Counted from the stretch's first letter, positions 1-19,144 are shown. The stretch: 42,184 nucleotides of DNA from a virus (IMGVR_UViG_2565956633_000005:1-42184); one strand, 5' to 3'. Notes: generated by a model not told the origin, from the sequence alone. Made by a program: numbers and translations.

Positions 1-321
1 TGTGCCCACATCCCTTTTCGCCGCTTCTCCTAAACCAAGGTTTGTGAGAGCCGTAGAAATCGCCGCTGCTCCATCTGATTTGATATCGGCAAATGGGTTT
101 GCACGGCTCAGTGTGAGTTTTTGAATGGCTTTTAAAACCTGAGTCATATCGTTAATGTCGAGCGCCAATCCTGCTGACTCTACGATATGCGCTAACTCTT
201 CCTGCATGGCGTTAAACGCTGCTGCCCGCAGCCTCGTTGCGGCAATACCACCAGCAACACTTCCATCAGTATATTTGCCATCCTGCGTTGCAGTGGCTTC
301 GACTTGCCCGATTCGGAGCAT
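1..321 (-). CDS. tail fiber protein, N-terminal part (gene runs off the window start)
   Basis: ATG at 319-321 (minus) with GAGG-type RBS; frame open to position 1 (MLRIGQVEATATQDGKYTDGSVAGGIAATRLRAAAFNAMQEELAHIV...); follows gp47/gp48-like genes as in Mu-type tails; absent from ORF track because truncated. Confidence 0.5.
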   Translation of the reverse strand, partial: MLRIGQVEATATQDGKYTDGSVAGGIAATRLRAAAFNAMQEELAHIVESAGLALDINDMTQVLKAIQKLTLSRANPFADIKSDGAAAISTALTNLGLGEAAKRDVGT

Positions 322-372
322 AGTTAATCCTCACTTAGTGTTAAGCGATAAAATCAGAGGGGGAAATATCAG

Positions 373-966
373 TTATGAATAATTGAAAATGATGTTCAGA
401 TGGGATGGGGCAATTTTGTTGATTGAACACTCCAGTTGTTTATTGCCCCACGATGCGAGCGGATCTCCGCAGTAGGACGCGCCAGCAAGCGAATACTTGT
501 TCGTTGTTTGTGGCGCATTTATCCGCCAGGTAAATGGCCACTCGTCACCGTTAAGCGCATCACCGCATACTGACATGCCACTCATAGCGGGCCTGAACTG
601 TGTGATAGTGATGGTATAACCAAGAGCTGCAGCCACCCGGATGTAATAATCGCGGTTCAGGCCGCCGGTGCTGATTAACTTTGCCACCACGGCGCGCTGG
701 CGATCGCTGACGCCACCGGATTCACCAATCGCACAATCATCTGGTAACCCCAGAGAGCTTTCCCATTCTGACAACATTACCGTCGCTGTAGGGGGAAAAG
801 CACCAGTAATCAGGCTTTGCGCATCGTTGTCAGAACGCTGAAACGCGCTGCCCAGTGCCCGTAATACCGCAGCCTGTACCGTTTTTTGCGATCTGGGCCA
901 CGCCCTGCCCGTCGGCAGCAACGCGCCAAGCGCACCGGCATAATCATTTTTTGAAAAGAGGCTCAT
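373..966 (-). CDS. tail protein, Mu gp48-like (DUF2313/YmfQ-like)
   Basis: 197-aa ORF; ATGA start/stop overlap with upstream baseplate J gene; family assignment from memory. Confidence 0.65.
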   Translation of the reverse strand: MSLFSKNDYAGALGALLPTGRAWPRSQKTVQAAVLRALGSAFQRSDNDAQSLITGAFPPTATVMLSEWESSLGLPDDCAIGESGGVSDRQRAVVAKLISTGGLNRDYYIRVAAALGYTITITQFRPAMSGMSVCGDALNGDEWPFTWRINAPQTTNKYSLAGASYCGDPLASWGNKQLECSINKIAPSHLNIIFNYS

Positions 967-16501: not shown

Positions 16502-16509
16502 GATTTTCC

Positions 16510-18633
16510 TTATTTCGGCAGGAGTTGCGATATTCGCTTACGTTTGACCGGCGCTGGTTCTTCAATAACCGCACCCGGCAGCTCGTAATTGATTTTTTCT
16601 TCCTGTCCAACTGGCGCTGGCAGGAACTTATCCGGATCGGCTTCGAGGTTGGCGGCCCGGACGTTGAGTTTTAACCCCATATGTTTGAGACCGCACAGCG
16701 CGGCATAGCTGTAAACGAGGCAGTCAAGCGCTTCGTTAGCTCGTCCTGGTATTGCTTCCCAGATACTGTACCGCTGCCCGGAAATGACTTTGTAAACCAG
16801 TCGCTCCGCCAGCAGCTGATTGAAGTACCCGAGATCGCGATCGTCAGGAAAATGCATATAACCCGCAGCGGCGGCGCCAGGTTTGGGTGGCTCAAGATGC
16901 AGGCGACCGCGTATCACGTCTTTCGCTGAGTTAACCCCCAGAATGACAGGGCGGAAACTGGCTTTGCTTTTCGATGATGGTCGTTTGGTCGGCCAGACAG
17001 GATTGCGTTTGCCTCCCTGTGCAGACTCCCCCTTAATTGCCCAGACACGACGGCCAAGACGCTCTTTGGCGAATTCGTATACCTTCTGCGTATGGTGGCC
17101 GCCGGAGTCCATGCACGTTGCCATGATATTCAGGCCGCGCCCGTCACCACGTCGCCAGATCTGTTTCAGGTATGCATCCAGTCGCTTCCAGGGTTCTTCC
17201 GTCTCAAGGTCACCATAAATAACGTCATGCGCGACCGACCACGATTCTTCATCTCTCCCCCAGCCGGTGATCGTAATTTCGAAGCGATCGTCCTGGGTAT
17301 CAACTCCAGCTGTTAACAATGCCACCCCGTCCGGAACGACGGCCGGAAATATTTCCCGGCGCGCCAGCAGAACATCAACAGGGAGCTGTTTCCCATGATT
17401 AGGTCGGTGCGGAAGCCCCATCTGGGTATTCCACCACGCCTGTTCCTTATCCGGATCGCCCTTCGCATCGATATATTTTTTCGCAATATCCGACGGCTTA
17501 TCTTTTTGCCAGGGGCTGAAAAGCTTGGATGCCTGGTACCCCGCGTGGTGGTTATCGACTGCCTCCTTTCCACAGGAGGGGCAGATTGCGCGATAGACCG
17601 CATGCCGTTCCGACTCTGACCATTGCCAGACCTTTTCAACGCTGCCCTCGTCTGCCGCCCGCCAGGCAAGGTCATAATCCATCAGCGGTGAGTGCCGCTC
17701 CCCGCAGCACTCAAATGGGCGCGTCTGATGCCATCGAATAGTGTGCAGAGCTCTGAGGCGCTGTCCTTCGGACCAGCCACTACCACAGCATTCGCAATAG
17801 AGCATCGCCGATTTAGTCAGGTGTTTATCTCCCTCTTTCGGCCACTGAACGTGTTTGAAAAAGTCGGGGAACTGGCGGTGGCCACAGTGCGGGCAAACCA
17901 CAGATGCCCGGCGCTGATCGGAGTCGGCGTAGCTGTCAGCAATGCGGCTCTCATCCTCCACCGTCGGCGAACAGGCGCGTACAGACAGCCAGGTCAGGCC
18001 AAATGTCGCTGTACGCTCTTCGGCCAGCGCAATTGGATCGCCTTCGCGGGTTATCGGGTACTTGTCCACTTCATCCGCCAGCAGGACACGAATCGGACGA
18101 CGCGCAAGGTTATCAGGGCTACCAGCACCCGCCAGCGCCAGAAATCCGCCAGTGAATGCCTTGTAAAGAATGGTTTCTTTCGAGCTTTTCTGTTTCGAAT
18201 CACCGATGATTTTACGCAGTACCGGCGTCACCCTTACCAGCGGGCTAATACGCTCTTTCGAAAACTGTTCAGCGGCTTCTTCTTTCGGCTGCAGCAGCAG
18301 TATCGGACAAGGATCGAGGTGGGCAAAATAGCCAAAAAGGTTTTCCAGCAGTGCTGTCTTCATCAACTGGGTACAGCACATTACAGTGATGATATGAACC
18401 CCGGACTCCGTCGCGGCAAGCATCGGTCCGCGGGCAATTTCTACCGTCGATGTTTCCCAGTTTCCCGAAGTGCTCCCAGCCTCTTTTGCCAGCTTACGAT
18501 AGTCATCTGCCCACTGCGGCACACTGATACGCGGCGGGGGTGTCCAGCCTTTGCGGACGCTTAATTCAAGACGCTCAATCTTCTGCCGGGTTAAACTCTG
18601 GCTCTCCGAGGACTGAGATGTGTTTGTGGACAT
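16510..18633 (-). CDS. terL: terminase large subunit (lambda gpA-like)
   Basis: About 707 aa; track start is TTG, ATG at 18631-18633 chosen. Confidence 0.85.
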   Translation of the reverse strand: MSTNTSQSSESQSLTRQKIERLELSVRKGWTPPPRISVPQWADDYRKLAKEAGSTSGNWETSTVEIARGPMLAATESGVHIITVMCCTQLMKTALLENLFGYFAHLDPCPILLLQPKEEAAEQFSKERISPLVRVTPVLRKIIGDSKQKSSKETILYKAFTGGFLALAGAGSPDNLARRPIRVLLADEVDKYPITREGDPIALAEERTATFGLTWLSVRACSPTVEDESRIADSYADSDQRRASVVCPHCGHRQFPDFFKHVQWPKEGDKHLTKSAMLYCECCGSGWSEGQRLRALHTIRWHQTRPFECCGERHSPLMDYDLAWRAADEGSVEKVWQWSESERHAVYRAICPSCGKEAVDNHHAGYQASKLFSPWQKDKPSDIAKKYIDAKGDPDKEQAWWNTQMGLPHRPNHGKQLPVDVLLARREIFPAVVPDGVALLTAGVDTQDDRFEITITGWGRDEESWSVAHDVIYGDLETEEPWKRLDAYLKQIWRRGDGRGLNIMATCMDSGGHHTQKVYEFAKERLGRRVWAIKGESAQGGKRNPVWPTKRPSSKSKASFRPVILGVNSAKDVIRGRLHLEPPKPGAAAAGYMHFPDDRDLGYFNQLLAERLVYKVISGQRYSIWEAIPGRANEALDCLVYSYAALCGLKHMGLKLNVRAANLEADPDKFLPAPVGQEEKINYELPGAVIEEPAPVKRKRISQLLPK

Positions 18634-19144
18634 GTTCAATCAGCACCTCTGTCATCCTGTCCGCCGGTACATCCAGATCAGCAGCCATTAGCGGCGCCAC
18701 CCTGGACGGCCAGTTAAGCCAGGCATCACGCTGTTGGCGAAAGGCGTTGAATAAAACCTCCTCGGCTGCTGTCAGCTCAATAAGCTGGCCGCTGTCTTTT
18801 TCATACTGCAGCTTTGCCTGCAGGGCCATGTAATTCTCGCGGATACGTCCCGCTTCCTCTCTCGAAAGATCTGCCCCTTCAGTGAGCATTATCTGGCGGA
18901 CAGTTTTATTGATTTCATCACCGTCATCATCGTTATCGCTAACGACGGGAGTTTTCTTTTTCTTCGCGTTCGAGGCGCGCGGGTCTTTGCCATCGCGGTT
19001 TTTCTTCAATGCCGCATCGCTGGCCTCTACGTCAATCAGGTCTCCGTCCATCACAATGAAGCGCCCGGCTTTAATCCACCGGCCAATTGTTTTGCGATCC
19101 ACACCTGAATGTTGTGCGTACTGACTCTGGTTCATCGTGGTCAT
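18575..19144 (-). CDS. terS: terminase small subunit (lambda Nu1-like)
   Basis: 189 aa, N-terminal HTH; overlaps terL start as in lambda. Confidence 0.75.
   Translation of the reverse strand: MTTMNQSQYAQHSGVDRKTIGRWIKAGRFIVMDGDLIDVEASDAALKKNRDGKDPRASNAKKKKTPVVSDNDDDGDEINKTVRQIMLTEGADLSREEAGRIRENYMALQAKLQYEKDSGQLIELTAAEEVLFNAFRQQRDAWLNWPSRVAPLMAADLDVPADRMTEVLIEHVHKHISVLGEPEFNPAED

Follow-up and report, generated by a model that had tools for sequence, protein, structure and literature searches.

We analysed a window of 42,184 nucleotides (nt) of viral DNA, by which we mean the whole stretch IMGVR_UViG_2565956633_000005:1-42184, and focused on the virion genes in its first part. The minus strand of positions 1-19144 holds an unbroken series of 23 open reading frames (ORFs), followed by the beginning of a tail-fibre gene, and the module reaches past 19144 to take in the packaging site cos (19144-19336). 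It is very likely, in our judgement, that 1-19336 on the minus strand represents the complete late operon and cos of a temperate, cos-packaging myovirus (hereafter the window phage) of the lineage of phages ΦNP and BZS1, with a lambdoid backbone and an ancestral pairing of head and tail. The genes run from the small and large terminase subunits (TerS and TerL) through gpW, portal, S49 protease, scaffold-like protein, gpD, gpE, a protein of 126 amino acids (aa), FII, terminator, DUF2635 protein, sheath, tube, chaperone and tape measure to the homologues of Mu gp43 to gp48. In this direction of transcription, the features are:

19325-19336, minus strand: cosN-like 12-mer GCATTGCGCGCC, predicted cohesive end, identical to the 5' end determined for BZS1 (PMC7556043; L003 1-12)
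19144-19291, no strand assigned: cosB-like array of eight TGTCCCA copies in both orientations, between cosN and the small-terminase start
18575-19144, minus strand: small terminase, 189 aa, positional analogue of Nu1 (phrog_57, terminase small subunit, 4.6e-36)
16510-18633, minus strand: large terminase of gpA type, 707 aa (PF05876, 2.8e-64; PF20454, 2.2e-78)
16238-16501, minus strand: gpW-type head-tail adaptor (PF02831, 1.3e-14; 84-86% identical to ΦNP and BZS1)
14601-16238, minus strand: portal of the lambda family (PF05136, 6.6e-100)
13738-14604, minus strand: gpC-like S49 prohead protease (PF01343, 1.6e-27; 36% identical to lambda gpC)
13146-13736, minus strand: acidic scaffold-like protein, positional analogue of Nu3 (phrog_6382; kept in ΦNP, BZS1 and phiAP1)
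12742-13146, minus strand: head decoration protein of the gpD family (PF02924, 1.5e-19)
11595-12644, minus strand: major capsid protein of the gpE family (PF03864, 8.4e-61; 89-92% identical to ΦNP and BZS1)
11213-11593, minus strand: 126-aa protein at the gpFI position (phrog_24496, function unknown)
10849-11208, minus strand: FII-type head closure protein (stopper), the last lambda-type gene (PF05354, Phage_attach, 5.5e-13; phrog_82, Hc1, 5.5e-23)
10307-10852, minus strand: tail terminator, 181 aa, the first gene of the tail block (structure model and Foldseek)
10106-10303, minus strand: DUF2635 protein, homologue of Mu gp38 (PF10948, 1.7e-19; 39% identical to Mu gp38, 50% to SfV orf10)
8607-10109, minus strand: contractile tail sheath (PF04984, PF17482, PF17481; Mu gp39 in the PDB)
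8232-8603, minus strand: tail tube (PF10618, 1.8e-35, the family of Mu gp40)
7952-8230, minus strand: tail assembly chaperone, 92 aa (PF10109, TAC_7, 9.6e-9)
7803-8230, minus strand: predicted -1 frameshift product of the chaperone gene, 142 aa (slippery heptamer T_TTT_TTG at 7973-7967)
5951-7810, minus strand: tape measure (phrog_2276, 3e-156)
4204-5607, minus strand: homologue of Mu gp43, DNA circularisation protein or tube initiator (PF07157, DNA_circ_N, 2.8e-30)
3122-4207, minus strand: baseplate hub, homologue of Mu gp44 (gpP) (PF21683, PF22255, PF21929; 30% identical to Mu over the full length)
2541-3125, minus strand: spike, homologue of Mu gp45 and in the same family (PF06890, 3.8e-12)
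2107-2544, minus strand: wedge, homologue of Mu gp46 (PF07409, 5.3e-30; 39% identical to Mu)
963-2105, minus strand: wedge, Baseplate_J protein, homologue of Mu gp47 (PF04865, 5.9e-57; 30% identical to Mu)
373-966, minus strand: wedge, homologue of Mu gp48 and YmfQ (PF10076, 1.2e-32; 31% identical to Mu)
1-321, minus strand: 5' part of a tail-fibre gene (ORF start at 321) that continues off the window

This gene order and the family assignments are real and far beyond chance; they rest on Pfam families and on matches to solved structures. An initial annotation, made from the sequence without database searches, had described the block as a lambda-like head and terminase joined to a Mu-like contractile tail, and this is borne out by Pfam, PHROG and the PDB. 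The portal matches the solved structures of the Chi portal (2.8e-74) and lambda gpB (1.1e-64), the capsid protein matches those of YSD1 and Chi (4.5e-38) and lambda gpE (2e-32), and the sheath matches Mu gp39 (2.1e-93). The matches to PF05136, PF01343, PF02924 and PF03864 all exceed the gathering scores. Identity to lambda is 29% for A, 31% for B, 36% for C and 30% for E, and both the ATPase and the endonuclease domain were found in the large terminase. No tblastn match was obtained between the head proteins and the Mu head genes or SfV 1-22000. The acidic protein encoded at 13146-13736, which also weakly matches the C-terminal parts of protease families in PHROG, presumably functions as the scaffold.

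The tail shows the opposite pattern. Its proteins are 30-39% identical to those of Mu and 25-50% to those of SfV, and none gave a tblastn match to lambda 1-22000. In place of the non-contractile set of lambda (V, G/T, H, M, L, K, I and J), the window has a sheath and a Mu-type baseplate. The sheath is 37% identical to that of Mu, 41% to SfV, 72% to ΦNP and 65% to BZS1. The protein-level comparison with lambda, Mu and SfV proposed in the initial annotation thus separates a lambda-only head from a Mu/SfV-only tail, but the whole block is nevertheless collinear in ΦNP and BZS1. The Mu gene order from gp36 to gp48 had also been claimed. Homologues of gp38 to gp48 do follow in order, but in Pfam scans of all window proteins, with the Mu proteins scanned in parallel, the families of Mu gp36 (PF07030) and gp37 (PF08873) were absent, and the tail is therefore better described as the set gp38-gp48 with a terminator that is only analogous. 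For the window phage, a contractile virion is predicted from its sheath, tube and baseplate genes, which are intact. A frameshift in the chaperone gene is also predicted; the -1 frame is open to 7803, reaching the tape-measure start, and the slippery heptamer is kept in ΦNP and reads TTTTTTA in BZS1. Within the tape measure, residues ~390-540 match phrog_873 and phrog_7182 (391-540), PHROG families of endolysins and of a "tail injection transglycosylase", which suggests a muralytic domain in this segment.

At the other end of the block, the name Nu1 given to the small terminase in the initial annotation was correct in part. The role is supported by phrog_57 and by position, but the protein has no Pfam-A family and no BLAST match to lambda Nu1; its identity to the small terminases of ΦNP and BZS1 is 33-34%. 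The Pfam-A library contains families of lambda's own Nu1 and FI. The small terminase and the 126-aa protein are only positional analogues of lambda Nu1 and FI. For the 126-aa protein, a homologue alignment was of no use, the matches listed all being at least 96% identical, and the single-sequence AlphaFold2 (AF2) model was too poor for a fold search, with a predicted local distance difference test score (pLDDT) of 58 and a predicted template modelling score of 0.27.

The capsid and sheath genes are separated by four small genes, which encode the 126-aa protein, the FII-type stopper, the 181-aa terminator and the DUF2635 protein. Across the joint, the operon genes lie on a single strand with 4-nt overlaps or 1-4 nt gaps; the FII stop and terminator start share 4 nt, as do DUF2635 and sheath, and the GC content shows no step across 10-12 kb. 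The 181-aa protein carries the database name "ATP-binding protein"; it has no Pfam match, and a profile search of the PDB gave noise alone. The AF2 model of this protein matches tail terminators in Foldseek, namely lambda gpU (4e-7), T5 p142, R4C, P74-26 and Milano. A weaker match is to a chain of 174 residues in 9khy_1, the Mu "terminator and trunk" entry (1e-4). On these grounds we call the 181-aa protein the tail terminator. An assignment to the Mu gp37 family was rejected, as hhalign of the terminator alignment gave a probability of 0.8%, and so were relationships to SfV orf9 and lambda gpZ, with probabilities below 1%. The model suggests that the protein and Mu gp37 have only the general gpU/terminator fold in common. 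The C-terminal 35 residues are disordered in the model.

The joint between the two modules had been placed at 10850-11600. It does lie in that area, but it is sharper: since the gene at 10849-11208 is lambda-type and that at 10307-10852 belongs to the tail block, the deep seam between the two modules falls at ~10850, with FII on one side and the terminator on the other. The neck of the window phage probably has four layers, the portal, the gpW adaptor, the FII stopper and the gpU-fold terminator. A promoter and terminator scan found fewer sites than in shuffled controls and none at the head-tail joint.

Homology searches place the head and tail genes in one coherent known lineage, the outcome that the initial annotation had named as speaking against its mosaic reading. 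The Citrobacter phage ΦNP (L002) and the Serratia phage BZS1 (L003) contain every gene in the same order by tblastn, at 50-93% aa identity from gpW to gp48. Both are myoviruses: ΦNP by transmission electron microscopy, with plating on E. coli K-12 (PMC6456863), and BZS1 by electron microscopy of its contractile tail, with 12-nt 5' cohesive ends (PMC7556043). Protein searches of the phage collection showed that portal and sheath co-occur in ΦNP, in BZS1 and, more distantly, in the Acetobacter phage phiAP1. The lineage was found only at the protein level because megablast against the same collection gave just the BZS1 capsid gene.

We also scanned genomes, one per species, with the terminator as seed, which gave 57 loci, 29 of them complete enough for scoring head and tail. 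Among the loci extending into the head genes, the block is complete in ~40 Enterobacterales species, including members of Klebsiella, Salmonella, Edwardsiella, Yersinia, Xenorhabdus, Photorhabdus, Morganella, Serratia and Erwinia; the exceptions are tail-only clusters in Yersinia and a small number of degraded loci. Identity at the aa level reaches 99-100% in Kluyvera and Citrobacter youngae. With the capsid protein as seed, 306 relatives were found in IMG/VR, and among the 80 loci kept, all that extend past the joint carry this terminator and tail and none another tail. Because the same block recurs in ΦNP, BZS1 and the genome and IMG/VR loci, and because the divergence of head and tail co-varies, the pairing appears to have been inherited as one ancestral unit, Enterobacterales-wide and reaching the Alphaproteobacteria. 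The term mosaic remains apt for the deep families, with the head at ~30% identity to lambda and the tail at 30-40% to Mu and SfV, but not as a description of a local event. The module is of a kind already characterised in ΦNP and BZS1 and is not a new hybrid.

Several points weigh against this reading. The correlation between head and tail in their mean identity to the window (Spearman rho 0.85 for the 29 loci; 0.80 without near-identical ones) refers to one reference sequence, and the loci are phylogenetically non-independent. TerS and the N-terminal two-thirds of TerL differ in type from those of ΦNP and BZS1 (33-49% identity). The AF2 model of the terminator is of moderate confidence (pLDDT 71), with the other four models at 43-54. 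The 126-aa protein has no assigned role, showing neither a Pfam-A family nor a BLASTP match to lambda FI, and no tail-completion protein of the gpZ or Neck1 type was identified. Finally, the inducibility, morphology and DNA ends of the window prophage are extrapolated from relatives at 50-93% aa identity.

Two observations on the scanned loci are of separate interest. The Rouxiella badensis plasmid pSP2 (CP114059), a 116-kb record, holds two copies of the module (L054, L056). Furthermore, three loci titled Vagococcus, Martelella and "Bacillota MAG" (metagenome-assembled genome; L020, L044, L045) hold modules 59-69% identical to the enterobacterial ones and look like contamination or mis-binning.

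Of the 5426 complete E. coli genomes, 33 contain 80% or more of the block. Many unrelated strains carry copies at 99.4-99.6% identity, and together with the nearly unchanged block in Kluyvera and Citrobacter these suggest a recent horizontal spread. The 99.6% identical block in E. coli AREA_C483 (NZ_CP123310) spans 2-19368 and therefore includes cos; outside this block, the early region differs. The E. coli matches number 292, and most of them are due to the 40-50 nt of the fibre N-terminus that many fibres share; apart from the two remnants described below, most of the ~250 partial matches cover only 40-110 nt of this segment. The fibre gene encodes a gp53-like domain protein by annotation in the 99.6% identical E. 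coli record, and its first 40-50 nt (window 1-50) match those of many unrelated prophage and phage fibres in Klebsiella, Escherichia and Salmonella at 93-98%. This pattern is consistent with a conserved attachment part that serves as a recombination handle. Two candidates for alternative head or tail partners in E. coli, H165 and H166, turned out to be internally deleted remnants of the same element, and at megablast sensitivity no E. coli genome pairs the head or the tail block with a different partner.

We considered whether the module, although of the ΦNP/BZS1 kind, belongs to a cryptic or defective prophage that yields no infectious particles. No sequence feature proves activity, and decayed copies of the element exist in E. 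coli. However, all structural ORFs are full length and match their orthologues end to end, the cos site and the genes for integrase, repressor, O/P, Q and lysis are all present, and nearly identical copies are found across unrelated E. coli strains and in Kluyvera and Citrobacter, so that we regard a defective prophage as unlikely. The rest of the window carries the lambdoid backbone, with Rz, lysozyme, holin, Q, NinG, NinB, Ea22, P and O as well as YdaS/YdaT-like regulators, an S24 repressor, RecE/RecT and a tyrosine integrase. The virion module is well formed and the prophage probably active.

It is very improbable that the window phage is instead a recent local recombinant, a lambda-like siphovirus prophage that gained a Mu- or SfV-type tail, or the reverse, with a fresh junction at ~10850. 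That the head is related to lambda alone among lambda, Mu and SfV, and the tail to the other two, would agree with such an event, and the occurrence of this tail family with Mu-type or HK97-type (SfV) heads or without a head indicates that modules were exchanged in the past. However, ΦNP, BZS1, phiAP1, the ~40 Enterobacterales species and every informative IMG/VR locus have this junction too and share its four connector genes. Furthermore, head and tail diverge together, the GC content is continuous, the partial E. coli matches are deletion remnants rather than alternative pairings, and the block from capsid to tube, which crosses the joint, is the best conserved part of the module in several relatives (L083, L084, L108). 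The hypothesis of a recent recombinant is thus already largely refuted. Least probable of all, at the margin of what deserves mention, are two adjacent defective elements, a lambda-like head remnant beside a Mu-like tail or tailocin cluster, for although headless clusters of this tail family exist in Yersinia and deleted prophage remnants in E. coli, the genes form a continuous operon on one strand with stop/start overlaps at FII/terminator and DUF2635/sheath, no lambda tail genes, Mu head genes or second regulator set lie between the halves, and the same arrangement yields viable myovirus particles in ΦNP and BZS1.

The Yersinia clusters also inform the position of the old seam in the inherited head-tail block. 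Eight loci (L058-L065; Y. aleksiciae, frederiksenii, alsatica, vastinensis, pekkanenii, similis and pestis) contain the terminator (43-50% identity) and the whole tail (~50-70%) and no head. The block from terminator to gp48 in L058 is flanked by host genes and comes directly after genes for a CI-like repressor, a Q antiterminator and a holin; this locus was read in place of Y. pestis L065, which is too degraded upstream of the terminator. The clusters look like headless R-type tailocin loci derived from this tail lineage. Because they start with the terminator gene, we place the beginning of the tail block exactly there, at ~10850.

Recent exchange, in contrast, appears to have taken place in the packaging genes and not at the head-tail joint. 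Relative to BZS1, TerL is 18-52% identical over residues 1-450 and 72-88% over residues 451-650, and the nucleotide match ends inside the TerL gene, at 17343 for ΦNP and at 17318 for BZS1. These values indicate a recombination joint near residue 435-445 (window ~17320-17345). Across the lineage, the identities of TerS and TerL fall into discrete classes (87-100%, 65-77% and 45-50%) and those of gpW and portal range over 63-97%, and terminase types assort independently of head and tail; the cassette variant of the window is also found within the lineage. Among the complete loci, terminase and head identities gave a rho of 0.37, which is not significant. The 12-mer GCATTGCGCGCC is present as an exact copy upstream of the terminase in 35 fetched loci, including ΦNP and BZS1 and either terminase class. 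The 148 bp of the array hold 8 of the 11 copies of TGTCCCA in the window, and BZS1 has three copies of GGTAACA at the corresponding position. By analogy with lambda cosB, the array may be the binding site of the small terminase. We suggest that the unit of recent exchange is a specificity cassette of TerS, the N-terminal part of TerL (TerL-N) and cosB, with cosN held constant. Lambda and phage 21 have a comparable specificity system. The interchangeable packaging-specificity cassettes may parallel that system, here in myoviruses. Tentatively, and with considerable doubt, we propose that a hybrid neck (a lambda-type adaptor and FII stopper, and a gpU-fold terminator capping a Mu-type sheath, without a recognisable tail-completion protein) occurs together with interchangeable TerS/TerL-N(~440 residues)/cosB cassettes around an invariant cosN.

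Patchy homologous exchange among relatives seems to be a second kind of recent shuffling. In L083, L084 and L108, for example, identity is 97-100% from capsid to tube and 77-90% from chaperone to gp47. As this patch crosses the joint, the head-tail joint is not a favoured breakpoint.

The virion may be assembled as follows, the steps being drawn from homology to lambda and Mu and the morphology and cohesive ends being experimentally known only in relatives. The small terminase would bind the TGTCCCA array and the gpA-type TerL would nick the conserved 12-nt cosN and package the DNA through the lambda-family portal. The prohead would be built from the gpE-type capsid protein, the S49 protease and the separate scaffold-like protein, and be stabilised by gpD-type trimers. 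Once filled, the head would be closed by the gpW adaptor and the FII-type stopper. The tail would assemble independently on a simple baseplate of the Mu type, with the gp43 initiator, gp44 hub, gp45 spike and gp46-48 wedges, and tube and sheath would polymerise around the tape measure with the help of the frameshifted chaperone. The gpU-fold terminator would then cap the tail; as a speculation, the 35 residues at its C-terminus that are disordered in the model may keep the top ring of the sheath in place, like the hairpin of Mu gp37. Head and tail would finally join through contact between FII and the terminator.

Some neighbouring features deserve a note. Between the tape-measure gene and gp43 lies a moron-like insert of low GC content (5627-6021), present in only some relatives, which encodes a protein of 82 aa (5671-5919, phrog_12129) predicted to have two membrane helices; the ORF is without annotation in the E. 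coli RefSeq record. A sigma-70-like promoter (6021-5993) precedes the gene and a strong terminator, a hairpin plus T-run (5647-5627), follows it, and this pair of signals is the only meaningful-looking result of the promoter and terminator scan. Just upstream of cos, a 233-aa ORF (19949-20650) without Pfam or PADLOC match is kept at 70-84% nucleotide identity in ΦNP (phiNP_029), BZS1 (p72) and an E. coli relative, although the lysis and early genes around it are not the same; it appears to move together with the virion genes. Beside the repressor, a low-GC island (32065-33473; 41-44% GC) holds a pair of genes, the first in Pfam DUF6932, that match PDC-M63, a candidate defence system of PADLOC (A, 4.2e-41; B, 7.5e-45). 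Finally, positions 35961-40474 contain a Rac-like module, with a RecE-type exonuclease of 1129 aa (Exonuc_VIII N-terminus, PDDEXK C-terminus) and RecT next to DUF4060 and the integrase.

Our findings identify a common enterobacterial prophage as ΦNP/BZS1-like and have little import beyond annotation. They correct the label of the 181-aa "ATP-binding protein", which is wrong in the databases, by reassigning it as a tail terminator, and they locate cos. They also show the head-tail boundary as an ancient module seam, with present-day shuffling located within the gene for the large terminase and, patchwise, between relatives.

The closest known systems are the two phages that give the lineage, which belongs to the unclassified Caudoviricetes, its name. 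ΦNP (OR565852; Petty 2011, Magaziner 2019), a prophage of C. rodentium, is collinear from gpW to gp48, has a lambdoid backbone and carries the same cosN 12-mer; aa identity is 84% for the portal, 89% for the capsid protein, 69% for FII, 73% for the terminator, 72% for the sheath and 93% for the tube. It differs in the small terminase (33%), in the N-terminal ~440 residues of TerL, which are of another type, and in its tail fibres, morons and early region; it integrates at ssrA, and nucleotide identity is just ~69-74%. BZS1 (vB_SspM_BZS1, MT843275; Bujak 2020) has the same order, with aa identities of 92% for capsid, 81% for portal and 65% for sheath, and its GenBank annotation lists Nu1, W, portal, D and E plus Mup38 to Mup48. 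Its determined 12-nt 5' cohesive end corresponds to 19325-19336 of the window, where the ends are predicted from sequence. However, its cosB repeats are GGTAACA and not TGTCCCA, its terminase N-terminus is of another type, and it has extra O-acetylase and esterase genes associated with the tail. In the Alphaproteobacteria, phiAP1 (LC644972) and a prophage in a Caulobacter MAG (L066) share the order of head, connector, terminator, DUF2635, sheath and baseplate. With identities of 26-60% (portal 60%, capsid 58%, FII 36%, terminator 26%, sheath 37%), phiAP1 is far more divergent, and by sheath identity its tail is no closer than that of Mu.

Lambda shares the gpA terminase, W, portal, S49 protease, D, E and FII families in the same order, and its packaging is of the cos type with a 12-nt 5' end, as predicted for the window phage. 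However, A, B, C and E are only 29-36% identical, Nu1, W, D, FI and FII are not detectable by BLAST, the lambda scaffold is nested in C whereas the scaffold-like protein of the window is encoded by a separate gene, and the tail of lambda is that of a siphovirus whereas the tail genes of the window are of the contractile type. In phmmer searches with the portal and the capsid protein, Chi and YSD1 score a little better than lambda.

Mu resembles the window phage in the families of gp38, sheath, tube and chaperone, the N-terminus of gp43 and gp44 to gp48, in the same order, and in its simple baseplate. Cryo-electron microscopy of Mu shows gp43 as the initiator of the tube, gp44 and gp45 as hub and spike and gp46-48 as wedges (PMC11915804). 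Identity is only 30-39%, however, and the window lacks the Mu head genes, the gp36 adaptor and a terminator of the gp37 family. The connector of Mu consists of portal, gp36 adaptor and gp37 terminator, with no stopper (PMC11915804), whereas the window phage has a stopper of the FII type. Instead of a transposase, the window encodes a tyrosine integrase, CI, O/P and Q, and it contains cos. The group of SfV, SfI, SfII, ST64B and φP27, like the window phage, consists of temperate myoviruses of enterobacteria that combine a lambdoid backbone with a tail of the Mu type, and the SfV tail is slightly closer to the window than that of Mu (sheath 41%, gp43 N-terminus 40%, DUF2635 50%). The group differs in its head and terminase, which are of the HK97 type and show no detectable similarity to the head genes of the window, in its terminator family (PF23840) and in an extra Neck1 protein. 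A tail of the Mu type has been reused with Mu, HK97-type and lambda-type heads and, in Yersinia, with no head at all, which is textbook phage mosaicism and requires no new principle.

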